Assembly (NCBI RefSeq): GCF_044324875.1 | Contig: NZ_CP172185.1 | Strand: one strand, 5' to 3' | From: Escherichia coli | GTDB lineage: Bacteria; Pseudomonadota; Gammaproteobacteria; Enterobacterales; Enterobacteriaceae | Length of the DNA: 64,000 nt | Shown here: positions 1-52,293 of the stretch, piece after piece | Position numbering within the stretch: position 1 is the stretch's first letter | Layout: each line of letters starts with the position of its first letter | The notes under the pieces: generated by a model | What the model saw: only the letters and a program-made list of their open reading frames with translations | What the model was told of the DNA's origin: nothing | Database searches by the model: none | Program-made: the position numbers and the translations under genes

Positions 1-2
1 AA

Positions 3-25718: not shown

Positions 25719-25728
25719 TGTGATGCGG

Positions 25729-25942: not shown

Positions 25943-26014
25943 TCAAGAGCAAATTCTGTCACTTCTCCTAATGAAGTGAACCGCTTAGTAACAGGACAGA
26001 TTCCGCATGACTGA
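25928..26014 (+). CDS. uof: Upstream ORF of fur (28-aa leader peptide)
   Basis: MIRIISRANSVTSPNEVNRLVTGQIPHD; stop overlaps the fur start by 8 nt. Confidence 0.6.
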   Translation: MIRIISRANSVTSPNEVNRLVTGQIPHD

Positions 26015-26453
26015 TAACAATACCGCCCTAAAGAAAGCTGGCCTGAAAGTAACACTTCCTCGCTTGAAAATCCTGGAAGTTCTTCAGGAGCCGGACAACC
26101 ATCACGTCAGTGCGGAAGATTTATACAAACGTCTGATCGATATGGGTGAAGAAATTGGTCTGGCTACGGTATATCGCGTACTGAACCAGTTTGACGACGC
26201 TGGTATCGTCACCCGCCACAATTTTGAAGGCGGTAAATCCGTATTTGAACTTACACAGCAACATCACCACGATCACCTGATCTGCCTCGACTGCGGCAAG
26301 GTAATCGAATTTAGTGATGATTCCATCGAAGCGCGTCAGCGTGAAATTGCCGCAAAACATGGCATTCGCCTGACTAACCACAGTCTCTATCTTTACGGTC
26401 ACTGTGCCGAAGGCGATTGCCGCGAAGATGAGCACGCGCACGAAGGCAAATAA
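26007..26453 (+). CDS. fur: Ferric uptake regulator
   Basis: 148 aa; Fur-family winged helix plus metal-binding HHHDH/CxxC region. Confidence 0.95.
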   Translation: MTDNNTALKKAGLKVTLPRLKILEVLQEPDNHHVSAEDLYKRLIDMGEEIGLATVYRVLNQFDDAGIVTRHNFEGGKSVFELTQQHHHDHLICLDCGKVIEFSDDSIEARQREIAAKHGIRLTNHSLYLYGHCAEGDCREDEHAHEGK

Positions 26454-26467
26454 GCCAGCCGGAACGA

Positions 26468-26497
26468 GAAAAGCCAACCTGCGGGTTGGCTTTTTTA
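26468..26497. terminator. Bidirectional rho-independent terminator between fur and chiQ
   Basis: aagccaacc-tgcg-ggttggctt stem followed by tttttt. Confidence 0.7.
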
Positions 26498-26536
26498 TAC
26501 ACGGGAAATAAGAAAAGCGAGAGTTACAGCTCTCAC

Positions 26537-26863
26537 TTATTTGTTATTACTGCGAATTTCCTGCCAGACCTTATCACAGTCGGCTTTTACCGCCTGATCA
26601 TTTCCGGTTTGCGTTGCGCGCAGACACTGCTGATAATCCAGTACGCGTACACTTTCCTGGTCGGCAAACTGCTGATGTTGTTTCTCTTTCTTCAGCACGT
26701 TTAACACGCTCTGGCAGGCTTCAATTTTTTCTGGCGAACCTTGTGCGGTGTTGATACAGGCGCTGTATGCCTCTTTCAGACGGCTGTCTTCCTGTGGCGC
26801 GGTTGATTGCGCACAAGCCACCAGCCCCGATGCCATCATGGCGATGAGAATCAGTTTTTTCAT
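26537..26863 (-). CDS. chiQ: Lipoprotein ChiQ
   Basis: 108 aa; lipobox LVAC; directly downstream of chiP. Confidence 0.8.
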   Translation of the reverse strand: MKKLILIAMMASGLVACAQSTAPQEDSRLKEAYSACINTAQGSPEKIEACQSVLNVLKKEKQHQQFADQESVRVLDYQQCLRATQTGNDQAVKADCDKVWQEIRSNNK

Positions 26864-26912
26864 AGCAAATTCCTCAAACGTGCGGCAGGCACAAAACCTG
26901 CCGCGTCGGGCA

Positions 26913-28319
26913 TCAGAAGATGGTGAATGGTGCGATTACCATAAATTTCACGTCACGCTCATCCTGGAAGATGTTGCCGTAACCACCGCCCCAGCTTGGG
27001 ATGTCGGAGTGGTTGTCGTATTCGGTGAAGTGCAGTTTGAACATCGTGCCTTTGGCGCGACCGTCCTGAATGGTGTAGACCGCATCCAGGCTGTAGGCAG
27101 ACTCTTCAATAGTCCGGTTTTTGTCGTAGTACGCATCCGGATTGCTCTGCCAGGTAGCGGGTTTAGCATCCCATGCGTAAACGTAGGAAGCGCCGATGGC
27201 GAAGCCTGGAAGATTCCAGTTTTTCAAGTCATACATCGCACCGAAGAAGACCGCTTTTTCGCCGTTGGCGTTGAAGTCGGAACGGTTATCCCACCAGATA
27301 TCCAGGCGACCGTTCGAGGAAGCGTAGGTTGGAGTCATACGTTGCAGGAAGTATCCCTGCTGACCGTCAGCCTTAACCCAGGTGCCTTCGAGGCGCAAAT
27401 CCACTACGTCAGCCGCCCGGTAACCAAAGGTCAACGCTTGCAGCCAGGCGGTGCCGTCATAAAGATCGTTGACGCTGCGATCGTCAACTTTATCGCGCGT
27501 ACCGTAGAACTGGTAGCTGGTGGTTAACGGGCTACCGGCGATATCAAATTTGTAGCTGGCTTTGGCAAAATATTGATCGATATACCCTTCCGCCTGACCA
27601 AATGCCGCTTCCAGTACGAAGTTATTTTTGAAGTCGTATTTCGCACCGATGGAGTGCAGATAATCAACTTTGGTGGTTTTATCGTTCTGATAAAACTCAT
27701 CCATTTCCAGATGCCACGGTGCTTTGTATTCGTTGGTCCACATGTAGGAGAAACTCAACGCACCAGCATCGCCGTAATCAAAATTCGCCCCGGCTTCCGC
27801 CCCCTGATAAGTACCCGGCATAAAGCTCCAGTGCGGCGCTAACAGCGTTTGACCAGTTGGCTGAATGTAACCTGCCCTCGCCCAAACCGGACCGTATTTA
27901 AATTTGGCCGCTGCTTTATACAGGCTTATACCGCTTTTGTCGCCGGACCAGTCTTCGTCATAGGCTTTATTGCTTTTTGAAAACGCGATTTCGTTCGGGT
28001 GAGAGCTGTCACCGTTTTCCGCCATTTCAATCGCCGTAAACGCAGCAATATCAAGGCCGAACATATCAGCAGCATAACCAGACTGAAAATCGAGGTTGGC
28101 GTTCCAGGTGGAGTGAGAAAGGTTGGTTTTGTATTTGTCGCCGTCGGTAACATCTTTACGGTCGCGTTCACGCTGCCAGTAATAGATACCGCCGGTTAAG
28201 GTTGAATCGTCGATAAATCCTTCGGCGCGAGCCTCCGGCATTGCCATAAAGCCCGACATTGCTGTAACACCGGCGATAGCCAGCGCCAGCGTACTACGTT
28301 TGCCACTAAACGTACGCAT
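26913..28319 (-). CDS. chiP: Chitoporin (outer-membrane porin, OprD family)
   Basis: 468 aa; signal peptide; beta-barrel with C-terminal aromatic residue (...PFTIF). Confidence 0.9.
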
Positions 28320-28674
28320 GGGTTAATCCTCTTTGACGTATAAATTGCTGCACCAAAGGTGAACAGCGAAAAAAATAAAAATTAAAAAAGTAGCGTTGAG
28401 AAAAGTCTCGCTGACTACAGGAACAGACTATTTTTCGCGACGCGAATTATCAATCTCTTTCTGTAACCAGAATGTAAGAACATGAGCAACCGCACATATT
28501 TTGATGATTTTTGTTACAGGGCTTAAGTTTGCGGTTGAAAGGCTTGCAGAAGAATAAAAGCGTGAATTTCCAGCAAGATGAAAGCGGTTACATTTTATTT
28601 AATTATGTTTTGTTATTTTAAATTTATTTTATGGATAAATTGCGAAGCGGAATTAATTCGCGAAGAAAAGCAGA

Positions 28675-28702
28675 AAAAACGCCGCTGAACGCGGCGTTTT
28701 GG
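28675..28702 (-). terminator. Hairpin terminator downstream of glnS
   Basis: aaacgccgc...gcggcgttt stem with T-run on the minus strand. Confidence 0.5.
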
Positions 28703-28720
28703 ATTGTTTGCATATTTCTT

Positions 28721-28887
28721 GCCGGATGCGGCGTGAACGCCTTATCCGGCCTACAAAAGCACGCAAACTCAATATATTGCAGAGATCATGTAGGCCTGAT
28801 AAGCGTAGCGCATCAGGCAATTTAGCGTTTGAAACTGTTTGTCTGTTCCTTGCCGGATGCAACGTAAACGCCCCATCCGGCATAGCG
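28721..28887. repeat. BIME cluster (three REP units)
   Basis: Three gccggatgc...-type REP palindromes in alternating orientation. Confidence 0.8.
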
Positions 28888-28897
28888 AAACTTAAAA

Positions 28898-30562
28898 TTA
28901 CTCGCCTACTTTCGCCCAGGTATCACGCAGCCCAACGGTGCGGTTAAATACCGGTTTTTCCGCCGTAGAATGGCGGCTATCGAGGCAGAAATAACCTTCA
29001 CGCTCAAACTGGAATGCTTTACCCGCTACCGCGTCTTTCAGAGACGGTTCAGCAAAGCCCTGTTTGATCACCAGCGATTCCGGGTTAATCACCGACAGGA
29101 AATCATCCGCAGCACCAGGGTTCGGCACGCTGAAAAGACGGTCGTACAGGCGGATTTCAACCGGCAGCGCATGTGCCGCGCTCACCCAGTGAATAACGCC
29201 TTTCACTTTACGACCATCTGCCGGATCCTTGCTTAAGGTGTCGGCGTCATAAGTACAGAAGATGGTGGTGATATTGCCTTCGGCATCTTTCTCCACGCGT
29301 TCAGCCTTAATGACGTAAGCATTACGCAGACGCACTTCTTTACCCAGCACCAGACGTTTGTACTGCTTGTTAGCTTCTTCGCGGAAATCGGCGCGGTCGA
29401 TCCAAATCTCACCGCTAAACGGCACCTGACGGCTACCCATTTCCGGTTTGTTCGGATGGTTCGGCATGGTGACCATTTCGCCTTCGCCCTGATAGTTTTC
29501 GATAACCAGTTTCACCGGATCGATAACCGCCATTGCGCGCGGCGCATTTTCGTTGAGATCTTCACGGATGCAGGATTCCAGCGACGCCATCTCAATGGTG
29601 TTGTCCTGCTTGGTCACGCCGATGCGTTTGCAGAACTCACGAATAGAAGCCGCAGTGTAACCACGACGACGCAGACCGGAAATGGTCGGCATACGCGGGT
29701 CATCCCAGCCTTCAACGTGCTTGTCGGTCACCAGCAGGTTCAGCTTACGCTTGGACATCACGGTGTATTCCAGATTCAGGCGCGAGAATTCGTACTGGCG
29801 CGGGTGAACAGGAATGGTGATGTTGTCCAGTACCCAGTCGTACAGACGACGGTTGTCCTGGAACTCAAGCGTACACAGAGAGTGCGTAATACCTTCCAGC
29901 GCATCGCTGATGCAATGGGTGAAGTCGTACATCGGGTAGATGCACCACTTGTTGCCAGTCTGGTGGTGTTCAGCAAATTTAATGCGGTACAGCACCGGAT
30001 CGCGCATTACGATAAATGGCGACGCCATGTCGATTTTCGCACGCAGGCAGGCTTTACCTTCTTCAAAACCACCGGTACGCATTTTTTCGAACAGCGCCAG
30101 GTTCTCTTCAACGCTGCGGTCGCGGTACGGGCTGTTTTTACCCGGCTGCGTCAGGGTGCCGCGGTATTCGCGGATCTGTTCCGGTGTCAGTTCATCAACG
30201 TACGCCAGGCCTTTATTGATCAGTTCGATCGCATAGGCGTGGAGCTGATCAAAATAATCGGAGGAGTAACGGACGTTACCAGACCAGTGAAAACCTAACC
30301 ACTCAACGTCGTTTTTGATCGACTCAACATACTCGATATCTTCTTTTACCGGGTTAGTGTCGTCGAAACGCAGGTTGCACTGGCCTTTATAGTCCTGGGC
30401 GATCCCGAAGTTCAGGCAGATAGATTTCGCATGGCCAATATGCAGATAGCCATTCGGCTCCGGCGGGAAACGGGTGTGTACTGTGGTGTGCTTACCACTG
30501 GCCAGATCTTCATCGATGATCTGACGAATAAAGTTAGTCGGGCGGGCTTCTGCCTCACTCAT
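28898..30562 (-). CDS. glnS: Glutaminyl-tRNA synthetase
   Basis: 554 aa; class I aaRS HIGH motif (HIGH) and KMSKS-like motif (VMSKR). Confidence 0.95.
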
Positions 30563-30689
30563 CGTGGATTCCTCAAAGCGTAAACAACGTATAACGGCGT
30601 ATGATCTTATAAGCGGGACAGGCTGACAACTGTTAGTTAGTGAAAATCGAAAATCTCACTGAGATTATGGGGATGATTGATGAAAAAAA

Positions 30690-30756
30690 AAGCGGCAGAG
30701 AAGATCTCCACCGCTTGTCATTGTTGGATGCGACGCTCAAGCGTCGCATCAGGCAT
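30690..30756 (-). terminator. REP unit plus hairpin downstream of nagE
   Basis: ggatgcgacgctcaagcgtcgcatcaggcat REP, then agcgg...ccgct hairpin with a 9-nt T-run on the minus strand. Confidence 0.5.
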
Positions 30757-30764
30757 AAAGAAGA

Positions 30765-32711
30765 TTACTTTTTGATTTCATACAGCGGCGTTTGACCCGC
30801 CACGACATGGCCCTGAGCTTTAATGATCAAGCCACTGAAATCGTCGATATTGCTGCAAACCACCGGGCTAATCATCGAGCGGGCGTTAGCGTTCAGGTAA
30901 TCCAGATCCATTTCCAGAATCGGTTGCCCTGCGCTTACCTGCGCGCCCTCTTCCACCAGACGTTTAAAGCCTTTACCTTCCAGCGCTACGGTGTCGATAC
31001 CCATATGGACGACGATCTCCGCGCCTTTTTCGGTTTCCAGGCAGAACGCGTGGTTGGTATTGAAGATTTTCACGATTGTCCCTGCGGCTGGTGATACGAC
31101 GATTTTATCTGTCGGTTTCACCGCCACACCGTCACCCACCGCTTTGCTGGCGAATGCTTCGTCAGGAACCTGATCCAGTGCCACAACATCACCGGTAATC
31201 GGCGATACCAGCTCCGCGATAGACACCGCGTTTGGTACAGCCTGCGGTTTTGCTACAGGAGCGGCAGTTGCCGGAGTTGCTTCAGCTGACGCAGCGGCTA
31301 CCGGACCACGGGCAACAACTTTCTTCATTGCATCGCCAATGGATTCCGCTTTCGCGCCAACAATCACCTGAATAGTCTGTTTGTTCAGTTTCACTACCCC
31401 AGAAGCACCCAGCCGTTTACACATCGCATCGTTGACGCGAGCCGAGTCAACCACGGTCAGGCGCAGACGAGTAATACAGGCGTCAATTGCTTTCAGGTTG
31501 TCAGTACCGCCAACCGCAGCAATATAGTTGGTCGCCAGTTGAGTCAGACCTTCTTCCGTGTTGCTGTTGGCTTCTTCAGTAACGATCTCGTCTTCTTTAT
31601 CTTCACGGCCCGGCGTTTTCAGGTTGAACATACGGATAACCAAACTGAACACCACGAAGTAGATAGCGAAGAAGACAACACCCATCACCAGCAGCATCCA
31701 GACGTTCTGGCTGGCGGCCGGCAGGTTATACATCAACGCGTAGTCGATAGCCCCCGCAGAGAAGGAGAAGCCCGCGTGGATACCCAGCAGCGTTGCCACA
31801 AACAGGCTGATACCGGTCAGCAGTGCGTGCAGGAGGTACAGCAGCGGCGCAAGGAACATGAACAGGAATTCCAGCGGCTCAGTCACACCGGTCAGGAACG
31901 CAGTAACAGCAACAGAAAGCAGCATACCGCCAACCATCGGACGACGCTCTTTCGGTGCTGCAAAGTACATCGCCAGCGCCGCACCCGGCAGACCGAACAT
32001 CATGATCGGGAAGAAGCCGGACATGAACATCCCCGCGGTGCCGTCACCGGCATAGAAGCGGTTAATGTCGCCGTGGAAAACCGTACCCGCCGCGTTGGTG
32101 AATTCACCAATCTGGAACCAGGCGATGGTGTTCAGTACCTGATGCAGACCGGTTGGGATCAGCAGACGGTTGATGAAACCAAAGATACCGGAACCCAGCG
32201 CGCCCGCAGAAACGATCCACTCGCCGCCTGCATGGATAGCGTGCTGTACCGGCGGCCAGACGTAACCAAAAATGGCCGCCAGCACCAGGCAGAAGAAGCC
32301 GGTGGCAATCGGCACAAAGCGTTTGCCGCCGAAGAAGCTCAGGAAGTCAGGCAGTTTAATATCGGACCAACGGTTATAGGCTGCGCCACCAACCAGACCG
32401 GTAATGATACCCGCCAGTACACCCATGTTAATTTCTGGGTTGATGGTCACCATCGCTTTGGTTAACACAAAGTAACCTACCGCACCCGCCAGCGCCGCCG
32501 CACCCGCGCTGTCTTTCGACCAGCTGGATGCCACACCGATGGCGAAGATTAATGCGAGGTTATCAAAAATCGCACCGCCCGCCTGGGCAATAAACGCAAC
32601 GTTAAGTAAATCTGGCTGACCGAATCGCAGCAACAGCGCCGCCACCGGCAGCACCGCGATAGGGAGCTGTAACGCCCTACCGAGTCGCTGGAAAAAACCT
32701 AAAATATTCAT
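30765..32711 (-). CDS. nagE: PTS N-acetylglucosamine transporter EIICBA
   Basis: 648 aa; EIIC membrane domain with EIIB and EIIA domains at the C-terminus. Confidence 0.95.
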   Translation of the reverse strand: MNILGFFQRLGRALQLPIAVLPVAALLLRFGQPDLLNVAFIAQAGGAIFDNLALIFAIGVASSWSKDSAGAAALAGAVGYFVLTKAMVTINPEINMGVLAGIITGLVGGAAYNRWSDIKLPDFLSFFGGKRFVPIATGFFCLVLAAIFGYVWPPVQHAIHAGGEWIVSAGALGSGIFGFINRLLIPTGLHQVLNTIAWFQIGEFTNAAGTVFHGDINRFYAGDGTAGMFMSGFFPIMMFGLPGAALAMYFAAPKERRPMVGGMLLSVAVTAFLTGVTEPLEFLFMFLAPLLYLLHALLTGISLFVATLLGIHAGFSFSAGAIDYALMYNLPAASQNVWMLLVMGVVFFAIYFVVFSLVIRMFNLKTPGREDKEDEIVTEEANSNTEEGLTQLATNYIAAVGGTDNLKAIDACITRLRLTVVDSARVNDAMCKRLGASGVVKLNKQTIQVIVGAKAESIGDAMKKVVARGPVAAASAEATPATAAPVAKPQAVPNAVSIAELVSPITGDVVALDQVPDEAFASKAVGDGVAVKPTDKIVVSPAAGTIVKIFNTNHAFCLETEKGAEIVVHMGIDTVALEGKGFKRLVEEGAQVSAGQPILEMDLDYLNANARSMISPVVCSNIDDFSGLIIKAQGHVVAGQTPLYEIKK

Positions 32712-32832
32712 CTTATTCCCCCTACGAGAACCCTATTTGGCTCGTTTAAAGCCGTATTTTTATTTTGCTGCAAATTGTACTGCCGATGTTCTGTAATCAG
32801 ATTGTTAGATCATCTGCTACAGAGTGTGTGAA

Positions 32833-32950
32833 AATTTAATTCGTATCGCAAATTAAAAGCGTGTCTTTTGTGAGTTTTGTCACCAAATATCGTTATCATC
32901 ACTCCCTTTTACTGGCTAAACCAGAAAACTTATTTTATCATTCAAAAAAT
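32833..32950. promoter_or_regulatory. Divergent nagE / nagBACD control region with two NagC-operator candidates and a CRP site
   Basis: Palindrome tttaattcgtatcgcaaattaaa (32833-32857); CRP-like TGTGA-N6-TCACC (32869-32884); cttattttatcattcaaaaaat (32929-32950) near the nagB start. Confidence 0.55.
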
Positions 32951-33043
32951 CAGGTCGGATTGACGCCTGTCTGCGCAAATCCAGGTTACGCTTAAAGATG
33001 CCTAATCCGCCAACGGCTTACATTTTACTTATTGAGGTGAATA

Positions 33044-35052
<2,009 letters not shown>

Positions 35053-35060
35053 GAGAAAGT

Positions 35061-36281
35061 ATGACACCAGGCGGACAAGCTCAGATAGGTAATGTTGATC
35101 TCGTAAAACAGCTTAACAGCGCGGCGGTTTATCGCCTGATTGACCAGTATGGGCCAATCTCGCGGATTCAGATTGCCGAGCAAAGCCAGCTTGCCCCCGC
35201 CAGCGTAACCAAAATTACGCGTCAGCTTATCGAACGCGGGCTGATCAAAGAAGTTGATCAGCAGGCCTCCACCGGGGGCCGCCGCGCTATCTCTATCGTC
35301 ACCGAAACCCGCAATTTCCACGCAATCGGTGTACGGCTTGGTCGTCACGACGCCACCATTACTCTGTTCGATCTCAGTAGCAAAGTGCTGGCAGAAGAAC
35401 ATTACCCGCTGCCGGAACGTACCCAGCAGACGCTGGAACATGCCCTGCTGAATGCCATTGCTCAGTTTATTGATAGCTACCAGCGCAAGCTGCGCGAGCT
35501 GATTGCTATTTCCGTGATCCTGCCAGGGCTTGTTGACCCGGACAGCGGCAAAATTCATTACATGCCGCATATTCAGGTAGAAAACTGGGGGCTGGTAGAA
35601 GCACTGGAAGAGCGTTTTAAAGTGACCTGTTTTGTCGGCCACGATATCCGTAGTCTGGCGCTGGCAGAGCACTACTTCGGTGCAAGTCAGGATTGCGAAG
35701 ACTCCATTTTAGTGCGTGTCCATCGCGGGACCGGGGCAGGGATTATCTCTAACGGGCGCATTTTTATTGGCCGCAACGGTAACGTCGGTGAAATTGGCCA
35801 TATTCAGGTCGAACCGCTGGGTGAACGCTGCCACTGCGGCAACTTTGGCTGCCTGGAAACTATTGCTGCCAACGCTGCTATTGAACAACGGGTGTTGAAT
35901 CTGTTAAAGCAGGGCTACCAGAGCCGCGTGCCGCTGGACGACTGCACCATAAAAACTATCTGCAAAGCTGCGAACAAAGGCGATAGCCTGGCGTCGGAAG
36001 TGATTGAGTATGTGGGTCGTCATCTGGGCAAAACCATCGCCATTGCGATCAACTTATTTAATCCGCAAAAAATTGTTATTGCCGGTGAAATCACCGAAGC
36101 CGATAAAGTGCTGCTCCCTGCTATTGAAAGCTGCATTAATACCCAGGCGCTGAAGGCGTTTCGTACTAATCTGCCGGTGGTACGTTCTGAGCTGGATCAC
36201 CGCTCGGCAATCGGCGCTTTTGCGCTGGTAAAACGCGCCATGCTCAACGGTATTTTGCTCCAGCATTTGCTGGAAAATTAA
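35061..36281 (+). CDS. nagC: NagC transcriptional regulator (ROK family)
   Basis: 406 aa; N-terminal HTH plus ROK sugar-kinase-like domain with CxCGxxGC motif. Confidence 0.9.
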   Translation: MTPGGQAQIGNVDLVKQLNSAAVYRLIDQYGPISRIQIAEQSQLAPASVTKITRQLIERGLIKEVDQQASTGGRRAISIVTETRNFHAIGVRLGRHDATITLFDLSSKVLAEEHYPLPERTQQTLEHALLNAIAQFIDSYQRKLRELIAISVILPGLVDPDSGKIHYMPHIQVENWGLVEALEERFKVTCFVGHDIRSLALAEHYFGASQDCEDSILVRVHRGTGAGIISNGRIFIGRNGNVGEIGHIQVEPLGERCHCGNFGCLETIAANAAIEQRVLNLLKQGYQSRVPLDDCTIKTICKAANKGDSLASEVIEYVGRHLGKTIAIAINLFNPQKIVIAGEITEADKVLLPAIESCINTQALKAFRTNLPVVRSELDHRSAIGAFALVKRAMLNGILLQHLLEN

Positions 36282-36328
36282 TGTGCTTTTATAGTGGCGC
36301 TTATTGTTGTCAATATTCTGGGTAGTCC

Positions 36329-37082
36329 ATGACCATTAAAAATGTAATTTGCGATATCGACGGCGTGCTGATGCACGATAACGTCGCCGTACCGGGTGCA
36401 GCGGAATTTTTGCACGGGATTATGGATAAAGGCCTGCCGCTGGTGTTGCTGACCAACTATCCTTCGCAGACCGGGCAAGATCTGGCGAACCGCTTTGCCA
36501 CTGCCGGTGTCGATGTACCTGACAGCGTGTTTTATACCTCTGCGATGGCGACCGCCGATTTCCTGCGTCGCCAGGAAGGCAAGAAAGCGTATGTGGTGGG
36601 CGAAGGCGCACTGATTCATGAACTGTACAAAGCCGGTTTCACTATTACCGATGTGAACCCTGATTTTGTGATTGTTGGCGAAACGCGTTCCTACAAACTG
36701 GGACATGATGCATAAAGCAGCCTATTTCGTCGCTAACGGTGCACGTTTTATCGCCACCAACCCGGACACCCACGGGCGCGGTTTTTATCCGGCGTGTGGT
36801 GCGCTGTGTGCGGGGATCGAAAAAATCTCCGGACGTAAACCGTTCTATGTTGGTAAGCCGAGTCCGTGGATCATCCGCGCAGCATTAAACAAAATGCAGG
36901 CGCATTCGGAAGAAACGGTGATTGTCGGCGATAACCTGCGTACCGATATTCTGGCGGGCTTCCAGGCCGGTCTGGAGACGATTCTGGTACTCTCCGGCGT
37001 TTCGTCGCTCGACGATATCGACAGTATGCCATTCCGCCCCAGCTGGATTTACCCATCGGTCGCCGAAATTGACGTTATCTGA
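36329..37082 (+). pseudogene. nagD: HAD-family UMP phosphatase NagD/UmpH, interrupted by a +1 frameshift
   Basis: Two overlapping ORFs (36329..36715 and 36672..37082) cover the N- and C-terminal halves of one HAD protein; the frame changes in an AAA run at about 36695-36697. Confidence 0.7.
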
Positions 37083-37133
37083 ATACCACCCACGTCTGCG
37101 GACGTGGTTGGCTCTGATGACAAGCGCCAAACT

Positions 37134-38442
<1,309 letters not shown>

Positions 38443-38475
38443 GCAGCTCCTGCAATATATTGAATTTTCATGCTT

Positions 38476-38512
38476 TTGTAGGCCGGATAAGGCGTTCACG
38501 CCGCATCCGGCA
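38476..38512. repeat. REP unit (right-flank half of the BIME split by the IS)
   Basis: gtaggccggataaggcgttcacgccgcatccggca preceded by the BIME linker tgcaatatattgaa. Confidence 0.75.
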
Positions 38513-38758
38513 TGAACAAATCGCACTTTGTCAGCAATTTGGCCCCCGTAAAATATAACCATTCAATAAAACCCGCTAAAAATTATCGATTCATCAATAA
38601 ATACATCCTTACACCAGACCTTTTTTCACCAATCGACAATCACCATTACGTTTTTTATTTTTTCACCGCCAAATCGCTTGCGCACAGTGCTGCTTTGCGG
38701 CATTTTTTTAAACAAGCAAACACAACAAGCAACAAATACCAGGTTAACGGAGAAGGTT

Positions 38759-40423
38759 ATGTGTTCAATTTTTGGCGTATTCGATATCAAAACAGACGCA
38801 GTTGAGCTGCGTAAGAAAGCACTCGAGCTGTCACGCCTGATGCGTCATCGTGGCCCGGACTGGTCCGGTATTTATGCCAGCGATAACGCCATTCTCGCCC
38901 ACGAACGTCTGTCCATTGTTGACGTTAACGCGGGGGCGCAACCTCTCTACAACCAACAAAAAACTCATGTGCTGGCAGTAAACGGTGAAATCTACAACCA
39001 CCAGGCATTGCGCGCTGAATATGGCGATCGTTACCAGTTCCAGACCGGGTCTGACTGTGAAGTGATCCTCGCGCTGTATCAGGAAAAAGGGCCGGAATTT
39101 CTCGACGACTTACAGGGCATGTTTGCCTTTGCCCTGTACGACAGCGAAAAAGATGCCTACCTGATTGGTCGCGACCATCTGGGGATCATCCCACTGTATA
39201 TGGGCTATGACGAACATGGTCAGCTGTATGTGGCCTCAGAAATGAAAGCCCTGGTGCCGGTATGCCGCACGATTAAAGAGTTCCCGGCGGGGAGCTATTT
39301 GTGGAGTCAGGACGGCGAAATCCGTTCTTATTATCATCGCGACTGGTTCGACTACGATGCGGTGAAAGATAACGTGACCGACAAAAACGAGCTGCGTCAG
39401 GCACTGGAAGATTCCGTTAAAAGCCATCTGATGTCTGATGTGCCTTACGGTGTGCTGCTATCTGGTGGCCTGGATTCCTCAATCATTTCCGCTATCACCA
39501 AGAAATACGCAGCCCGTCGCGTGGAAGATCAGGAACGCTCTGAAGCCTGGTGGCCGCAGCTGCACTCCTTTGCTGTAGGTCTGCCGGGTTCACCGGATCT
39601 GAAGGCAGCCCAGGAAGTGGCAAACCATCTGGGCACTGTGCATCATGAAATTCACTTCACTGTACAGGAAGGTCTGGACGCCATCCGCGACGTGATTTAC
39701 CACATCGAAACCTATGATGTGACCACTATTCGCGCTTCAACACCGATGTATTTAATGTCGCGTAAGATCAAGGCGATGGGCATTAAAATGGTGCTGTCCG
39801 GTGAAGGATCTGATGAAGTGTTTGGCGGTTATCTTTACTTCCACAAAGCGCCGAATGCCAAAGAACTGCATGAAGAGACGGTGCGTAAACTGCTGGCCCT
39901 GCATATGTATGACTGCGCCCGTGCCAACAAAGCGATGTCAGCCTGGGGCGTGGAAGCACGCGTTCCGTTCCTCGACAAAAAATTCCTCGACGTGGCGATG
40001 CGCATTAACCCACAGGATAAAATGTGCGGTAACGGCAAAATGGAAAAACACATCCTGCGTGAATGTTTTGAAGCGTATCTGCCTGCAAGCGTGGCCTGGC
40101 GGCAGAAAGAGCAGTTCTCCGATGGCGTCGGTTACAGTTGGATCGATACCCTGAAAGAAGTGGCGGCGCAGCAGGTTTCTGATCAACAGCTGGAAACTGC
40201 CCGCTTCCGCTTCCCGTACAACACACCGACCTCAAAAGAAGCGTATCTGTACCGGGAGATCTTTGAAGAACTCTTCCCGCTTCCGAGCGCCGCTGAGTGC
40301 GTGCCGGGCGGCCCGTCCGTCGCGTGTTCTTCCGCTAAAGCGATTGAGTGGGATGAGGCGTTCAAGAAAATGGACGATCCGTCTGGTCGTGCGGTTGGCG
40401 TTCACCAGTCGGCGTATAAGTAA
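38759..40423 (+). CDS. asnB: Asparagine synthetase B (glutamine-hydrolysing)
   Basis: ORF 38678..40423; start MCSIFGV (N-terminal Cys nucleophile) gives 554 aa; SGGLDSS PP-loop motif. Confidence 0.95.
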   Translation: MCSIFGVFDIKTDAVELRKKALELSRLMRHRGPDWSGIYASDNAILAHERLSIVDVNAGAQPLYNQQKTHVLAVNGEIYNHQALRAEYGDRYQFQTGSDCEVILALYQEKGPEFLDDLQGMFAFALYDSEKDAYLIGRDHLGIIPLYMGYDEHGQLYVASEMKALVPVCRTIKEFPAGSYLWSQDGEIRSYYHRDWFDYDAVKDNVTDKNELRQALEDSVKSHLMSDVPYGVLLSGGLDSSIISAITKKYAARRVEDQERSEAWWPQLHSFAVGLPGSPDLKAAQEVANHLGTVHHEIHFTVQEGLDAIRDVIYHIETYDVTTIRASTPMYLMSRKIKAMGIKMVLSGEGSDEVFGGYLYFHKAPNAKELHEETVRKLLALHMYDCARANKAMSAWGVEARVPFLDKKFLDVAMRINPQDKMCGNGKMEKHILRECFEAYLPASVAWRQKEQFSDGVGYSWIDTLKEVAAQQVSDQQLETARFRFPYNTPTSKEAYLYREIFEELFPLPSAAECVPGGPSVACSSAKAIEWDEAFKKMDDPSGRAVGVHQSAYK

Positions 40424-40437
40424 GAAATGCGGTACTG

Positions 40438-40463
40438 CCCCGGAGAAATCCGGGGCTGTTTTA
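40438..40463. terminator. Hairpin between convergent asnB and the 145-aa ORF
   Basis: ccccgg-agaaat-ccgggg followed by ctgtttta. Confidence 0.55.
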
Positions 40464-40464
40464 G

Positions 40465-40902
40465 TTATTGAGCTGCTTGTTGATTCTGATATGCAGTAAG
40501 GAAATGTTCCGGGTTTGCCACATCACTGTTTGACAACTCATCACTGTAGGCCACCGACCAGGTCGCCTGCTCATCCGGAATATGCAGGCTGCCATTCCCC
40601 TCTTTCAGGCGTAATAACTCAAAAGATTTGCCCTTAATTACGGCGGTATAGGATTTTTCACCTTCCTGTAATGCTTTCACTTTACAGCGAAAAATATGGC
40701 CATCGATGTCATTATCAACATGCGATACCTGAATGAGGGCTTCATTAGAGGCTTTCGGCCCTATCCGCATCATCCACACCACAGCGCCTTCCTGCCCACG
40801 ATAGCCAAAAACATATTTACCGATTTCCGGTTTGACCGTATCGGCAAACGCAGATTGCATAAGTAATAACGCACCCATCAGCGCCGTCATAAAACGCAGC
40901 AT
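40465..40902 (-). CDS. Hypothetical exported protein (145 aa, signal peptide)
   Basis: N-terminal MLRFMTALMGALLLMQSAFA-DT signal peptide; no family recognised. Confidence 0.55.
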   Translation of the reverse strand: MLRFMTALMGALLLMQSAFADTVKPEIGKYVFGYRGQEGAVVWMMRIGPKASNEALIQVSHVDNDIDGHIFRCKVKALQEGEKSYTAVIKGKSFELLRLKEGNGSLHIPDEQATWSVAYSDELSNSDVANPEHFLTAYQNQQAAQ

Positions 40903-41165
40903 AGTATTCCCTCAATAAATCGCCTGAAGTGGTAGCAGAGATGCAGGCGTAGCGATCCCTGCCCTGTCCTGTTGCAACGGGCCAGTATTTCATAGATTAA
41001 TTTCCCACCACTATTGTTGAATTCCGAATTTCATCCTGTATGACAAAAGAATGGCTGTAGGGTGGGAAAAAAACACAAAGTAAACAATAATTGACGAATA
41101 TAGCGCCACGCTGTTCGCAACCTAACCAAACAGTCACTTTCGAGCAATTTTCCTTGAAAAAGAGG

Positions 41166-41194
41166 TTGACGCTGCAAGGCTCTATACGCATAAT
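41166..41194 (+). promoter_or_regulatory. Promoter of the tRNA operon (sigma70 -35 TTGACG, 17-bp spacer, -10 CATAAT, GC-rich discriminator)
   Basis: ttgacgctgcaaggctctatacgcataatgcgcccc about 45 bp upstream of the first tRNA. Confidence 0.5.
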
Positions 41195-41235
41195 GCGCCC
41201 CGCAACGCCGATAAGGTATCGCGAAAAAAAAAGAT

Positions 41236-41312
41236 GGCTACGTAGCTCAGTTGGTTAGAGCACATCACTCATAATGATGGGGTCACAGGTTCGAATCCCG
41301 TCGTAGCCACCA
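41236..41312 (+). tRNA. metT: tRNA-Met (elongator, anticodon CAU)
   Basis: 77-nt cloverleaf ggctacgtagctcag...ccacca with anticodon loop ctCATaa. Confidence 0.9.
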
Positions 41313-41321
41313 TCTTTTTTT

Positions 41322-41406
41322 GCGGGAGTGGCGAAATTGGTAGACGCACCAGATTTAGGTTCTGGCACCGCAAGGTGTGCGAGTTCAAGTCTCGCCTCCC
41401 GCACCA
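41322..41406 (+). tRNA. leuW: tRNA-Leu (anticodon UAG)
   Basis: 85-nt class II tRNA gcgggagtggcgaaattggtagac... with long variable arm; anticodon TAG. Confidence 0.9.
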
Positions 41407-41429
41407 TTCACCAGAAAGCGTTGTACGGA

Positions 41430-41504
41430 TGGGGTATCGCCAAGCGGTAAGGCACCGGTTTTTGATACCGGCATTCCCTGGTTCGAATCCAGGTACCCCA
41501 GCCA
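41430..41504 (+). tRNA. glnU: tRNA-Gln (anticodon UUG)
   Basis: 75-nt tggggtatcgccaagcggtaaggcaccggtttTTGata... Confidence 0.9.
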
Positions 41505-41519
41505 TCGAAGAAACAATCT

Positions 41520-41596
41520 GGCTACGTAGCTCAGTTGGTTAGAGCACATCACTCATAATGATGGGGTCACAGGTTCGAATCCCGTCGTAGCCACCA
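41520..41596 (+). tRNA. metU: tRNA-Met (elongator, anticodon CAU), second copy
   Basis: Identical in sequence to the first tRNA-Met. Confidence 0.9.
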
Positions 41597-41644
41597 AATT
41601 CTGAATGTGTCGAATGCGTTCGGCAAATTCACAAACCAATTTGT

Positions 41645-41719
41645 TGGGGTATCGCCAAGCGGTAAGGCACCGGATTCTGATTCCGGCATTCCGAGGTTCG
41701 AATCCTCGTACCCCAGCCA
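41645..41719 (+). tRNA. glnV: tRNA-Gln (anticodon CUG)
   Basis: 75-nt tggggtatcgccaagcggtaaggcaccggattCTGatt... Confidence 0.9.
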
Positions 41720-41724
41720 CATTA

Positions 41725-41750
41725 AAAAAGCTCGCTTCGGCGAGCTTTTT
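41725..41750 (+). terminator. Rho-independent terminator of the tRNA operon
   Basis: agctcgc-ttcg-gcgagct stem followed by ttttt. Confidence 0.8.
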
Positions 41751-41872: not shown

Positions 41873-43048
41873 CTACAACCCTAACGCATATTTCAGCGCC
41901 TGACGTTTCAACATGCCAGCACGCTCCGCCGCCATCAAACCAAGATTACGCACAAAACGCAGTGGTGGCAGATTATTGCTGAATCCGGCATAAAACAGAT
42001 CCATACCGCTCTGCATAATGAAGTTATCCGCCATGCGCCGCATCTGGTAACGCTTGAGGATCGGATAACTGGCCCACGCTTCGCCATGGCTGCGAGCGTT
42101 GACCAGAACGTCAATCAGGGCATCGACATCACGATAACCAAGATTCACCCCCTGCCCCGCCAGCGGATGGATGGTATGCGCGGCATCGCCCACCAGTGCC
42201 AGTCCCGGCTGCACATACTGCAACGCATGGCGGCGCGTCAGCGGAAAAGCGCCAGCGGCAAGCGGTGTTACATACCCAAGACGTGACGGGAAATGCTTCG
42301 CGATTTCCGCCTGTAGCTGCGCCATATTCATATTCTGCAACTGGCGAATGCGTGCCGGAGAGTCATACCACACCAGCGATGCCCAGTTATCAAACAACGG
42401 CAGAAACGCACGAGGTCCATCCGGGGTAAATTGCTGCCAGGTGCTGTCGCCGGGATCGTTCTCACACTGTACGCTAATCAACATACACGACTGTGCATAC
42501 TGCCAGGCATGAACGCCAATTCCCGCCATCTGCCGCACCTGCGAATTTGCGCCGTCGGCACCAATCACCAGCTTCGCGCGGATCGTTTCACCGCCCTTCA
42601 GTTCCAGCTCCTGAAGATCATTATGGCGATGCAGCGCAATCAGCGAGCCTGGCACACGTAACGTTACTTTCGGATGCGCTTCCAGCGCCTGCCACAGCGC
42701 CTGTTGCAGGACAGTGTTTTCCACCATGTAGCCAAGCAGCGGTAGCTTAAGTTCAGCGGCGTCAAACACCACATGCGCCGTTTCCCACTCCCACGTTTCC
42801 AGTCTGCGGTAAGGATGGCAACGCATAGCCTGTACCGCGTCCCAGACGCCTAAACCTTTAAGCAATGATACCGAAGCCGCACTGATCGCCGAGATCCGCA
42901 CGTCCGGCTGGCTGTCAGCGACAAACGGTGCAGGTTGGGCATGTTCGATAACCATTACCGAAAATCCGTGCTGAGCCAGTCCCAGCGCCAGTGCGCCGCC
43001 GACCATTCCTCCGCCGACAATGGCAATTTCCGTTGGTTGATTTGTCAT
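41873..43048 (-). CDS. ubiF: Ubiquinone biosynthesis flavin-dependent hydroxylase
   Basis: ORF 41873..43054; FAD-binding motif IVGGGMVGGALAL at the N-terminus. Confidence 0.9.
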   Translation of the reverse strand: MTNQPTEIAIVGGGMVGGALALGLAQHGFSVMVIEHAQPAPFVADSQPDVRISAISAASVSLLKGLGVWDAVQAMRCHPYRRLETWEWETAHVVFDAAELKLPLLGYMVENTVLQQALWQALEAHPKVTLRVPGSLIALHRHNDLQELELKGGETIRAKLVIGADGANSQVRQMAGIGVHAWQYAQSCMLISVQCENDPGDSTWQQFTPDGPRAFLPLFDNWASLVWYDSPARIRQLQNMNMAQLQAEIAKHFPSRLGYVTPLAAGAFPLTRRHALQYVQPGLALVGDAAHTIHPLAGQGVNLGYRDVDALIDVLVNARSHGEAWASYPILKRYQMRRMADNFIMQSGMDLFYAGFSNNLPPLRFVRNLGLMAAERAGMLKRQALKYALGL

Positions 43049-43193
43049 GGTCAATCATCCTGTTAGCAATATGCTTTAAGTTTACAGGATTTTTACCCCC
43101 AAGGGCTGATAACGCTCATACTGGTCACAACGGCAGCAAAGCATTACACTATGCGCCCTGCATTCCTGGCTACTATTTCGCAAGAGCAAGTCG

Positions 43194-47267: not shown

Positions 47268-48806
47268 ATGGCTTTTGCCTCATTAATTGAACGCCAGCGC
47301 ATTCGCCTGCTGCTGGCGTTATTATTCGGTGCCTGCGGAACGCTGGCCTTCTCTCCTTGCGACGTCTGGCCTGCGGCGATTATTTCGCTGATGGGGCTTC
47401 AGGCGCTGACCTTTAACCGCCGTCCACTCCAGTCTGCCGCTATTGGCTTTTGCTGGGGATTTGGTCTCTTTGGCAGCGGTATTAACTGGGTCTATGTCAG
47501 CATCGCGACTTTTGGCGGAATGCCTGGCCCGGTTAACATCTTCCTGGTGGTGCTGCTGGCGGCGTATTTGTCGCTGTATACCGGACTGTTTGCTGGCGTG
47601 CTGTCGCGTCTGTGGCCGAAAACCACCTGGCTGCGCGTGGCGATTGCCGCCCCTGCTCTCTGGCAAGTGACCGAGTTTCTGCGCGGTTGGGTGCTGACCG
47701 GCTTCCCGTGGTTACAGTTCGGCTATAGCCAGATTGATGGCCCGTTAAAAGGGCTGGCACCGTTAATGGGCGTGGAAGCCATTAACTTCCTGCTGATGAT
47801 GGTTAGTGGCCTGCTGGCACTGGCGTTGGTCAAACGCAACTGGCGTCCGCTGGTGGTGGCCGTCGTGCTGTTCGCTCTTCCCTTCCCGCTGCGTTACATC
47901 CAGTGGTTCACCCCGCAACCGGAGAAAACCATTCAGGTTTCGATGGTTCAGGGCGATATTCCGCAATCACTGAAATGGGACGAAGGCCAGCTTCTTAATA
48001 CGCTGAAGATTTACTACAACGCAACGGCACCGCTGATGGGCAAATCATCGTTGATTATCTGGCCGGAGTCGGCGATAACCGATCTGGAAATTAATCAGCA
48101 ACCGTTCCTCAAAGCACTGGACGGTGAGTTGCGCGATAAAGGTAGCTCGCTGGTCACCGGGATTGTCGACGCGCGTCTCAATAAGCAGAACCGCTACGAT
48201 ACCTACAACACCATCATCACGCTGGGGAAAGGTGCGCCGTACAGCTACGAATCAGCCGATCGCTATAACAAAAACCATCTGGTGCCGTTTGGCGAGTTTG
48301 TCCCGCTGGAGTCGATTCTGCGTCCGTTAGCGCCGTTCTTTGATCTGCCGATGTCGTCGTTCAGCCGTGGGCCATATATCCAGCCACCGCTGTCGGTAAA
48401 CGGTATTGAGCTTACTGCGGCTATTTGCTACGAGATCATTCTCGGCGAGCAAGTGCGTGATAACTTCCGCCCGGATACCGACTACCTGCTGACCATCTCC
48501 AACGATGCGTGGTTTGGTAAATCTATTGGTCCATGGCAACACTTCCAGATGGCGCGAATGCGTGCGCTGGAGCTGGCGCGCCCGCTGTTGCGTAGCACCA
48601 ATAACGGTATTACGGCGGTGATTGGCCCGCAGGGGGAGATTCAGTCGATGATCCCGCAATTCACCCGCGAAGTGTTAACCACTAACGTGACACCGACCAC
48701 CGGACTCACACCATACGCACGTACCGGCAACTGGCCGCTGTGGGTACTGACGGCACTGTTTGGTTTTGCCGCTGTGTTGATGAGTCTGCGAGCACGTAAA
48801 CGTTAA
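47268..48806 (+). CDS. lnt: Apolipoprotein N-acyltransferase
   Basis: 512 aa; N-terminal membrane domain plus nitrilase-like CN-hydrolase domain. Confidence 0.95.
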
Positions 48807-48883
48807 TGTGCCTGATGTATCCGGCATAAACAAAACATACTTTCTCTTTGAGCTGTGGGGCGTGATTATCATGCCCCTTTTTC

Positions 48884-50761
48884 TTACGGTTCAGGGATAC
48901 AAGCCACATCGCCATATTGGGGATGCCGAATAATTGCCTGCGGATCAAGCGAGCGCGTCCTGTCCATTTGGATTAACCCGTTCTTCGCCATAACAAATAT
49001 CTTTCTACCATCCGCTGAAAAACGAAGATGATTAACGTAGCTGGCAGGATAAACGCCAATAATCTGCCCGGCATTAATATTGAGCAGAATGACATAACCT
49101 TGCAGGCCATATGACACCAACGCTAAATACTGACCGTCCGGGCTAATACCCTCAACGGAATAAACGCTCCTGCTACACCATTGCGTCATAATGCTGGCTT
49201 GCTGATCCCCAACTCTTATACGTGAAATCCCCTGGCTGTCGGCAAAAATTACATCCCCGTTTTCAGGTCGAAAACGCATCGCCGATATCGTTCCACGCGC
49301 ATCACTAGCCGGATAGCTTTCTTTTTGATGCGTGATGGTATTGATGCGTACAATGTCACCTCTGACCATACCGGGTATCAACAATGTTTTTTCATCCGGG
49401 GAAAGTGCCATAACCCAGGCGCCTGGTTTACCGCTCGTCCCCGTCCCGTCGTATTTCTCCAGCGGGATATCCGCCACATGCTGATAAGCCACCAGATCAA
49501 TGGCTGACACACTATTACTGGTGCGATTCATCACCCAGGCTTTTGTGCCATCGCGCGAGAGGATAAGGCTGTCAGGATGTGCGCCGGTGGTAATCGACTG
49601 AATAATCTCCCCCGTCGCCACGTTAATGACCGATAACGCATTCGCTTCAAATGAAGTTGCATAAAGCAACGTTTCATCCGGGCTTAACGCCAGCGATCTG
49701 ACGGCCTGATCTTTACAGCCACCACAATGTTTGAGTGACTTTTCTTTCGCTATGGGCGCTGTAAAGGTATGCAGGATTTTCTTTTGTCCGAGGTCGAAAA
49801 CAACAATGCTGTTGGTGTTTTCAATTGCGGCATACAACGTATTACCATCCCGACTGATCGCCATATCATGGATATCGGCAATCTCAGCGAGCAAATCACC
49901 ACTGGCCTGCTCACGACTTACCGGAGCGGATAATGTTTCCCTGAGGGCGTTGCGCTCCTCCACTAACTGCTGCTTTTTTTGTCGTCGCTCTTGTTCAATC
50001 TCCTGCGGATAAAACTCTTCACGCAGGCTGTGCCTGACCAGTAAAACTGATTCATCAATCTGCTGCTGCACAAGCCAGATAGCCCCGGTAAGAAGAAGAC
50101 TGCCCGCAACAATAATCCCGCCTTCCGTAACAAGCCGGTTTTGCCCAGATAAACGCGCACTCAGCCACCCCAACGCACCACCCGCAATCAGGCCGCCAAT
50201 ATGACAAGCATTATCTATTCCTGTTTGCCGGGCACCATACAACAGTGTCAGCGCCACCATACCCAACAGAGAAAATACTCGCCGCTGGTTTTTATGGTAT
50301 GTGCCCGCACCTGAAGCAAGCTGTGTTGCTATCGCAGCGCCAGCAATTCCCATAATTGCCCCGGATGCCCCAACGCTGATGACTATCTGCTCACTTTCGC
50401 GTAACGCATAACAGGCGCTGATTAGCCCACCAAAGACGCCAGAGAATAGCCAGACAATCAGGAGTCGCCATTTCCCCAGTATCCGTTCCGCCACTGCCCC
50501 CACCACCAGGAGTGCAAACATATTCATCAGCAAATGGGGAAAACTACTGTGCAGAAAGACACTGCTCAATAAGCGCCAGGGTTCACCCGACAACGTGAGA
50601 GAAGCAACGTTAGCACCAAGATGGATGAGTGCGGATTGATCGACGTCTTCATAACTCATCCATTGTGCGAGATAACAAAATATCCCAACACAGAGCGCAA
50701 AAAGGATAAGAGTTATTGCGGGTAATTGAACATTTAACGGCTTAACCGAAGATGCAGACAT
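48884..50761 (-). CDS. Rhomboid-family intramembrane serine protease fused to a C-terminal YVTN/WD40-like beta-propeller (625 aa)
   Basis: N-terminal polytopic region with rhomboid motifs GASGAIMG (Ser) and HIGGLIAG (His); linker rich in E/R/Q; C-terminal repeats SRDGNTLY, SPDETLLYA, SRDGTKAWV, SPDEKTLLI, SPDGQYLAL, SADGRKIFV. Confidence 0.75.
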   Translation of the reverse strand: MSASSVKPLNVQLPAITLILFALCVGIFCYLAQWMSYEDVDQSALIHLGANVASLTLSGEPWRLLSSVFLHSSFPHLLMNMFALLVVGAVAERILGKWRLLIVWLFSGVFGGLISACYALRESEQIVISVGASGAIMGIAGAAIATQLASGAGTYHKNQRRVFSLLGMVALTLLYGARQTGIDNACHIGGLIAGGALGWLSARLSGQNRLVTEGGIIVAGSLLLTGAIWLVQQQIDESVLLVRHSLREEFYPQEIEQERRQKKQQLVEERNALRETLSAPVSREQASGDLLAEIADIHDMAISRDGNTLYAAIENTNSIVVFDLGQKKILHTFTAPIAKEKSLKHCGGCKDQAVRSLALSPDETLLYATSFEANALSVINVATGEIIQSITTGAHPDSLILSRDGTKAWVMNRTSNSVSAIDLVAYQHVADIPLEKYDGTGTSGKPGAWVMALSPDEKTLLIPGMVRGDIVRINTITHQKESYPASDARGTISAMRFRPENGDVIFADSQGISRIRVGDQQASIMTQWCSRSVYSVEGISPDGQYLALVSYGLQGYVILLNINAGQIIGVYPASYVNHLRFSADGRKIFVMAKNGLIQMDRTRSLDPQAIIRHPQYGDVACIPEP

Positions 50762-51215
50762 GAGGTAATTCTTCCTTGAAAAGACAGGTAAAAAGCATTT
50801 TTCTCGTGTGCAGTTACCATCCCGGCAAACGTCCCATACCGAAAAGTTAACCCTGTCCGAAATATGACTTTTTCAGCCTGAAATTACAATCGTAATTAAT
50901 TCACCCCTAACTATTTTTTGGCATGTAAGTTGCTTTAATTACTGTGTAAGCAATGAAATCAGCCGCAACGAAACCGGGTTGCACCACCACAAATCAACGG
51001 TAGCGCCAAAAAGGTGCGGTTTAAGAATTTTGCTTCGGAATGGTGCGGCGCATCTCGCAAAAACAAACAATAAAACAGCAATATCTTTACATTTAGCCAA
51101 ACTAAATGTTACCTAACAAGCACAACACTGCACAATAAAGTTGCAGATGATAACAACACAAACACTCACAACGGGTATCCATGCGTTCTTAACGCAGAAG
51201 ATAAAGGAGTTGGAT

Positions 51216-52124
51216 ATGCAATTACGTAAACCTGCCACAGCAATCCTGGCCCTGGCGCTTTCCGCAGGACTGGCACAGGCAGATGACGCCGCCCCGGCAG
51301 CGGGCAGTACGCTGGACAAAATCGCCAAAAACGGTGTGATTGTCGTCGGTCACCGTGAATCTTCAGTACCTTTCTCTTATTACGACAATCAGCAAAAAGT
51401 GGTGGGTTACTCGCAGGATTACTCCAACGCCATTGTTGAAGCAGTGAAAAAGAAACTCAACAAACCGGACTTGCAGGTGAAACTGATTCCGATCACCTCA
51501 CAAAACCGTATTCCTCTGCTGCAAAACGGCACTTTCGATTTTGAATGTGGTTCTACCACCAATAACGTCGAACGCCAGAAACAGGCGGCTTTCTCTGACA
51601 CTATTTTCGTGGTCGGTACGCGCCTGCTGACCAAAAAGGGCGGCGATATCAAAGATTTTGCCGACCTGAAAGGCAAAGCCGTAGTCGTCACTTCCGGCAC
51701 TACCTCTGAAGTTTTGCTCAACAAATTGAATGAAGAGCAAAAAATGAATATGCGCATCATCAGCGCCAAAGATCACGGTGACTCTTTCCGCACCCTGGAA
51801 AGCGGTCGTGCTGTTGCCTTTATGATGGATGACGCTCTGCTGGCAGGTGAACGTGCGAAAGCGAAGAAACCGGACAACTGGGAAATCGTCGGCAAGCCGC
51901 AGTCTCAGGAAGCCTACGGTTGTATGTTGCGTAAAGATGATCCGCAGTTCAAAAAGCTGATGGATGACACCATCGCGCAGGTGCAGACCTCCGGTGAAGC
52001 GGAAAAATGGTTTGATAAGTGGTTCAAAAATCCCATTCCGCCGAAAAACCTGAACATGAATTTCGAGCTGTCAGACGAAATGAAAGCACTGTTCAAAGAA
52101 CCGAATGATAAGGCACTGAACTAA
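51216..52124 (+). CDS. gltI: Glutamate/aspartate ABC transporter periplasmic binding protein
   Basis: ORF 51141..52124; start MQLRKPATAILALALSAGLAQA (signal peptide) gives 302 aa. Confidence 0.9.
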   Translation: MQLRKPATAILALALSAGLAQADDAAPAAGSTLDKIAKNGVIVVGHRESSVPFSYYDNQQKVVGYSQDYSNAIVEAVKKKLNKPDLQVKLIPITSQNRIPLLQNGTFDFECGSTTNNVERQKQAAFSDTIFVVGTRLLTKKGGDIKDFADLKGKAVVVTSGTTSEVLLNKLNEEQKMNMRIISAKDHGDSFRTLESGRAVAFMMDDALLAGERAKAKKPDNWEIVGKPQSQEAYGCMLRKDDPQFKKLMDDTIAQVQTSGEAEKWFDKWFKNPIPPKNLNMNFELSDEMKALFKEPNDKALN

Positions 52125-52281
52125 TTACAAGAACCAGGGGCGGAAATTCCAGCCCTCTCGATTGTTACGTAGCACGGACAGACTATACGCCTGATGGTCG
52201 TTCCCCATCGGGCCTGAAAACCGCAATACGCTGGGTAACAATCTTCGAGGGTAGCAGTTAACGCTGCTACCCTCTTTTTTC
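52125..52281 (+). ncRNA. sroC: Candidate sRNA SroC, processed from the gltI-gltJ intergenic region
   Basis: Intergenic stretch ending in hairpin gagggtagcagttaacgctgctaccctc plus ttttttc (52248-52281); position matches where SroC is described. Confidence 0.45.
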
Positions 52282-52293
52282 TGGAGTAGATTT

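Follow-up and report, generated by a model that had tools for sequence, protein, structure and literature searches.

Why does a metT tRNA operon of Escherichia coli hold five genes where that of K-12 holds seven, and were the missing genes lost from the chromosome or from the assembly? The question arises in a 64-kb stretch of E. coli DNA, the whole of which is referred to here as the window. A first, sequence-only reading of it had proposed that recombination between repeated tRNA genes deleted two of the four Gln genes present in K-12. We compared the window with K-12, with its nearest relatives, with 5,426 complete E. coli genomes and with species representatives of other Enterobacterales.

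Results and Discussion

Organization of the Five-Gene Operon

ARAGORN detected five tRNA genes in the window, all on the plus strand, and with 57-71 bits each of them clearly exceeded the gathering score of the Rfam tRNA model, which is 29 (Table 1). The coordinates and anticodons initially proposed, a Met-Leu-Gln(UUG)-Met-Gln(CUG) array at 41236-41719, proved exact. This gene order on one strand, Met(CAU)-Leu(UAG)-Gln(UUG)n-Met(CAU)-Gln(CUG)n, fits the metT operon with n = 1 for both Gln types, which gives five genes in place of the seven of that operon. The array sits between asnB and ubiF, in the same order as in K-12 and in strain CH4796. Its putative promoter has the K-12 sequence in the alignment and presumably drives the operon. 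Directly after the -10 hexamer, the sequence reads as a G+C-rich stretch of the discriminator type, GCGCCCCGC, and such discriminators are typical of stable-RNA promoters. The predicted promoter and terminator bracket the five genes and match, at the level of sequence, the layout of the metT operon, with one promoter upstream and a terminator after the last Gln gene. The array at 41236-41719 is the Enterobacterales metT tRNA operon, probably in a contracted form.

Table 1. Coordinates of the tRNA operon and of neighboring features in the window
Feature	Position	Strand	Basis and remarks
IS621 copy (IS110 family, "bridge RNA" recombinase element)	37161-38438; ORF 37353-38333	+	between umpH/nagD and asnB
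asnB	ORF end 40423		upstream neighbor of the operon
145-aa ORF	40465-40902	-	between asnB and the tRNA promoter; signal-peptide-like N-terminus
Putative sigma-70-type promoter, TTGACG / 17-nt spacer / CATAAT	41166-41194	+	consensus scan, 10/12 hexamer matches
tRNA-Met(CAU), elongator, metT equivalent	41236-41312	+	ARAGORN; Rfam tRNA model, 71.1 bits; same as K-12 metT
tRNA-Leu(UAG), leuW equivalent	41322-41406	+	ARAGORN; Rfam, 57.5 bits; SNP at 41367
Single tRNA-Gln(UUG)	41430-41504	+	ARAGORN; 109-nt gap versus K-12 in the alignment
tRNA-Met(CAU), metU equivalent	41520-41596	+	ARAGORN; direct repeat, sequence equal to the first Met gene
Single tRNA-Gln(CUG)	41645-41719	+	ARAGORN; 112-nt gap versus K-12 and CH4796 in the alignment
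Rho-independent terminator	41725-41750	+	terminator scan; 11-pair stem (5 G-C), 4-nt loop, T-rich tail; same as K-12
ubiF	ORF 41873-43054	-	downstream neighbor of the operon
Segment between lnt and gltI	48800-51112		no alignment to K-12
sroC small RNA	52120-52282	+	174.8 bits; gltI-gltJ region as in K-12

Several features of the surrounding DNA were recorded alongside the operon. The 326-aa transposase of the IS621 copy matches PDB 8WT6, the IS621 transposase, with 726 bits and carries Pfam domains PF01548 and PF02371. The insertion is absent from the same umpH/nagD-asnB site in K-12 and CH4796, and IS621-like DNA occurs in 2,244 of the 5,426 E. coli genomes, at a median of 5 places. The 145-aa ORF has no Pfam match, and the annotations of some E. 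coli strains list it as a "hypothetical protein" (WP_000943484.1, WP_000943487.1). K-12 lacks this ORF, and in CH4796 its reading frame is shifted at a T-run (window position 40654). In K-12 the site between lnt and gltI is occupied by IS5, and a rhomboid-family intramembrane serine protease is annotated in this segment in CH4796, where it is frameshifted, and in other strains. Window positions 1-19700 gave no megablast match of 300 nt or more to the 672-722 kb region of K-12.

Two Unit-Sized Gaps Relative to K-12

Alignment of the window with K-12, CH4796 (six genes) and AVS0543 (five genes) revealed that the structural differences between window and K-12 are confined to two clean gaps, the promoter, terminator, spacers and remaining genes being colinear. 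K-12 does carry seven genes at the same asnB-ubiF site, in agreement with the sequence-only reading, and the companion statement that each Gln isoacceptor occurs once in the window, one Gln(UUG) and one Gln(CUG), held in both the ARAGORN calls and the reference-genome alignment. The first gap, of 109 nt, comprises one Gln(UUG) gene and the 34-nt glnU-glnW spacer; the second, of 112 nt, comprises one Gln(CUG) gene and the 37-nt glnV-glnX spacer. In K-12 exactly the same distances separate the start of glnU from that of glnW (109 nt) and the start of glnV from that of glnX (112 nt). Both ends of each missing segment lie inside identical 75-nt tRNA genes, and the alignment displays no junction scar; since the paired Gln genes are identical over 75 nt, a crossover leaves no scar and its point is not locatable.

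The spacers flanking the retained genes indicate what each would represent. Because the single Gln(UUG) gene is preceded by the leuW-glnU spacer and followed by the glnW-metU spacer, it would stand for a glnU/glnW fusion; by the same reading, the single Gln(CUG) gene, with the metU-glnV spacer 5' and the glnX-terminator sequence 3', would stand for a glnV/glnX fusion.

Nearest Relatives and History of the Two Losses

The window is ~97% identical to most E. coli over the array region. Its positions 38439-41723 align to CH4796, from a Swedish biobank, at 99.88% identity; over these 3,285 nt there are 2 mismatches and 2 single-base gaps. Of the four, three reflect true sequence differences (the length of the T-run at 40654, an A/G difference at 41067 and an A/G difference in leuW at 41367), and the fourth, at 41720, is merely the alignment end, where the arrays diverge. 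CH4796, EcPNK004, 118UI and GF131 each have a six-gene array in which Gln(UUG) occurs once and Gln(CUG) twice. The first three, the nearest relatives and separate RefSeq assemblies, share with the window the flanks, including the upstream 145-aa ORF, and the single Gln(UUG), but retain both Gln(CUG) genes and carry G at the leuW position where the window has A. No genome of the 5,426 combines the haplotype of the window with five genes.

Because the six-gene arrays of the nearest relatives likewise hold just one Gln(UUG), the loss of a Gln(UUG) gene looks inherited and common to them, and the loss of a Gln(CUG) gene would be private to the window sequence. In the simplest history, whose order is our inference, seven genes would have become six when the 109-nt Gln(UUG) unit was lost in an ancestor common to the relatives, the older step, and six would have become five when the 112-nt Gln(CUG) unit was lost separately in the window's own line. 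Identity to CH4796 changes in steps along the chromosome, being ~98.4-98.6% at 22027-37160, upstream of IS621, and 99.60% at 41643-64000, downstream of the 99.88% segment, which suggests a recombination mosaic around the locus.

Array Layouts in E. coli and Other Enterobacterales

Junction-specific queries against the 5,426 complete E. coli genomes found the glnU-glnW junction in 5,338 and the glnV-glnX junction in 5,198, with up to three and four copies per genome, respectively. From these counts the canonical seven-gene array is present in 93-96% of genomes, and ~4-7% deviate from it, in both directions. Layouts were told apart with a 370-nt query with short flanks; a 1.6-kb query was unfit for layout counts, as overlapping pieces are joined or dropped in repeat arrays and its first 280 nt are strain-specific. 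The exact five-gene layout of the window occurs in 19 genomes by the 370-nt query, 12 of which also matched the 1.6-kb query as a five-gene array in a single aligned piece, and the five-gene array of AVS0543 is borne out by its annotation. Six genes with a single Gln(UUG) occur in 20 genomes (370-nt query), and ~156 further genomes cover 89-90% of that query, which corresponds to arrays reduced in other ways. In the reference strain E24377A, whose genome was presumably finished by Sanger sequencing, the array has six genes, only one of them for Gln(CUG).

Public five-gene arrays such as those of FDAARGOS_1077 (NZ_CP068155.1), AVS0543 (NZ_CP124410.1) and 2824 (NZ_CM128562.1) have the same gene order and the same unit losses as the window but belong to other haplotypes, 98.5-99.5% identical over the array, and none of the public five-gene arrays carries the leuW allele of the window. 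Since the same layout is found in 19 complete E. coli genomes, the array of the window is an unremarkable copy-number variant (or a product of assembly collapse) of a kind already known from public genomes. Our literature search found no paper on natural copy-number variation of the metT operon; a study of tRNA copy number in E. coli does not mention Gln (PMC4539685), and another report does not mention the genes of the metT operon (PMC9981150).

A scan of GTDB species representatives for the 3' part of leuW, a 15-40 nt spacer and the 5' half of a Gln tRNA gave at least 120 Enterobacterales loci. ARAGORN was run on all those listed, and the 95 arrays lying away from a locus edge were scored. 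Among these listed matches, 55 of the 95 arrays have the canonical seven genes, 16 have six genes with one Gln(UUG), 8 have six genes with one Gln(CUG), 3 have eight genes with three Gln(CUG), and about 10 have other arrangements; two have five genes as in the window, and one more does so with its first gene called as Cys(aca). These proportions describe a sample in which many representatives are short-read drafts or MAGs, possibly collapsed themselves. Escherichia whittamii Sa2BVA5, itself a species representative, has the five-gene layout with the gene order and unit losses of the window. In view of these layouts and of the seven-gene metT operon of Salmonella (PMC5400242), seven genes are the commonest state of the array and probably the ancestral one. 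The metT array expands and contracts readily.

A Variant Base in leuW

At position 41367 the window has A where K-12, CH4796 and AVS0543 have G in the alignment. In a cloverleaf read by hand, this base falls within the stem of the tRNA-Leu(UAG) variable arm (C-A-C-C, GCAA loop, G-G-T-G), and the change is predicted to turn a G.U pair into A-U and thus to preserve the structure. The exact leuW allele occurs in two of the 5,426 E. coli genomes, PSS-08-2 and War, and among the matches listed from 120 Enterobacterales species representatives the A allele was not found, all having G. PSS-08-2 and War were considered as relatives of the window and rejected: both have seven genes and K-12-type flanks lacking the 145-aa ORF, from which it follows that the allele arose independently.

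Contraction or Assembly Collapse

Each missing segment is one repeat period long, ends within identical repeats and leaves no scar, and related genomes include both the six-gene intermediate and the expanded, reciprocal state. The expanded arrays, which reach three glnU-glnW or four glnV-glnX junctions in single E. coli genomes and eight genes in other species, are the reciprocal products of recombination or slippage; because collapse cannot produce them, the variation of the array counts for real recombination. Mechanistically, unequal homologous recombination or replication slippage between the identical 75-nt tandem Gln genes would remove whole units, and tandem direct repeats of ~100 bp undergo deletion in E. 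coli at appreciable rates by RecA-independent slippage. The proposal of the sequence-only reading, that repeat recombination deleted one glnU/W-type and one glnV/X-type copy, is thus supported by the scarless one-period gaps, the six-gene relatives and the expanded arrays. We consider it rather probable, though by no means assured, that both losses are real and arose in this manner between the tandem tRNA genes.

Collapse of the repeats during assembly, a caveat already raised in the sequence-only reading, is a serious rival. The main competing explanation is that the real array has the six genes of the relatives and that the assembler collapsed the glnV-spacer-glnX repeat into one copy, which would yield exactly the sequence of the window. 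Collapse does occur at this locus. A 51-mer specific for Gln(UUG) has no match anywhere in 16 of the 5,426 complete E. coli genomes, and leuW is absent from 13; the K-12 laboratory strain MC1061 (NZ_CP195014.1) and AVS0947 (NZ_CP124460.1) show only Met-Gln(CUG) at the locus, and ST648 (NZ_CP008697.1) shows Met-Leu-Gln(CUG). The metT operon belongs to the tRNA transcription units that are essential (PMC11480407), and a cell without tRNA-Gln(UUG) would be unable to read CAA, so that arrays lacking this tRNA are presumably artifacts; those of MC1061, AVS0947 and ST648 almost certainly reflect collapse of the tandem array during assembly, and their presence among genomes labeled "complete" implies that collapse at the locus reaches such assemblies. 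Reduced arrays moreover cluster by study (the GF, AVS and IPCEC strains): a single study, that of the GF chicken-meat strains, supplied seven of the 19 genomes with five genes, and these seven fall into three classes of identity to the window (99.5%, 99.2% and 98.7%), which hints at a pipeline effect. A single Gln(CUG) is also found in no other genome of the window haplotype, CH4796, EcPNK004 and 118UI all having two.

Against collapse of the Gln(CUG) pair, 228 of the 5,426 genomes, E24377A among them, lack the glnV-glnX junction, so that genuine loss of the unit is common. The window, furthermore, has very few indels relative to K-12 or CH4796 over tens of kilobases and runs straight through its copy of IS621, a multicopy element in the genomes that carry it. 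These two features weakly suggest a long-read or finished assembly; the 64-kb window contains no rRNA operon. Taken together, the evidence leaves a collapsed Gln(CUG) pair as a possibility of real weight, if on the doubtful side.

That the real array has all seven genes and both tandem pairs collapsed is improbable. Array collapse in public assemblies speaks for it, but the single Gln(UUG) is common to CH4796, EcPNK004, 118UI and GF131, so that the same artifact would have to recur in all of them, and in the 3.3-kb segment that ends at the array just two bases separate CH4796 from the window. It is very improbable that the contraction is both real and adaptive, with the two Gln dosages halved relative to Met and Leu and the G.U to A-U change in leuW forming part of the same tuning. 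Scarcely credible is an ancestral five-gene array that tandem duplication enlarged by two genes in K-12: such units are indeed duplicated in some genomes, but seven genes are the rule in E. coli, in Salmonella and in 55 of the 95 scorable Enterobacterales arrays among the matches listed, and the glnU-glnW and glnV-glnX spacers each have a sequence of their own that is conserved throughout E. coli, and are not recent spacer copies.

The metT array is accordingly both truly variable and prone to collapse, even in "complete" public genomes, and for this reason tRNA gene counts at the locus should not be read as biology without read-level support.

Transcript Processing and Gene Dosage

In K-12 the metT operon is transcribed as one polycistronic RNA whose terminator is removed mainly by RNase E, for which RNase G can substitute, after which RNase P separates the tRNAs (PMC2241853). 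By analogy, the operon in the window would yield a single precursor from which RNase E/G and RNase P release the mature tRNAs, and nothing in the window points to a pathway other than that of K-12. With one unit of each Gln type lost, the gene ratio Met:Leu:Gln(UUG):Gln(CUG) in the transcript would shift from 2:1:2:2 to 2:1:1:1. All four Gln tRNA genes of K-12 lie in the metT operon, and if the same holds here, both Gln isoacceptors would be at half gene dosage.

Should the contraction be real, each tRNA-Gln isoacceptor would be left with one gene, and the supply of tRNA-Gln may be lower; what the sequence-only reading remarked on supE and on tRNA-Gln supply is plausible in this light. The well-known suppressor supE44 is an allele of glnV, and tRNA-Gln(UUG) reads CAG as well; in a contracted array a supE-type amber-suppressor mutation, which gives the Gln(CUG) tRNA a CUA anticodon, would leave the cell with no tRNA of the Gln(CUG) type. 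A check of the Salmonella metT study for the reading of CAG by tRNA-Gln(UUG) found neither codon string in the paper (PMC5400242). Contraction of the metT array appears to be of little importance beyond bookkeeping.

Comparison with Known Systems

The operon in the window resembles the K-12 metT operon in site, promoter, leader, spacers and terminator, and in tRNAs that are identical except for one leuW base; it differs in having one Gln(UUG) and one Gln(CUG) gene where K-12 has two of each. The closest experimental precedent is the spontaneous recombination between metT and metU in a cloned Salmonella metT operon, which converted plasmid pUST313 into pUST314 (PMC5400242). There a deletion via identical tRNA genes inside the same operon was directly observed, but on a plasmid under selection and between the Met genes, and it removed leuW-glnU-glnW, not single Gln units. 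A broader parallel is offered by Pseudomonas fluorescens SBW25, in which, as described in two reports, tRNA gene copy number shifts by recombination-based duplication and deletion, altering tRNA supply (PMC7661048, PMC10954465). The window would share with SBW25 a recombination-driven change in tRNA gene copy number, but the SBW25 events are large-scale duplications in laboratory populations, whereas the window concerns the loss of ~110-nt units in a natural isolate.
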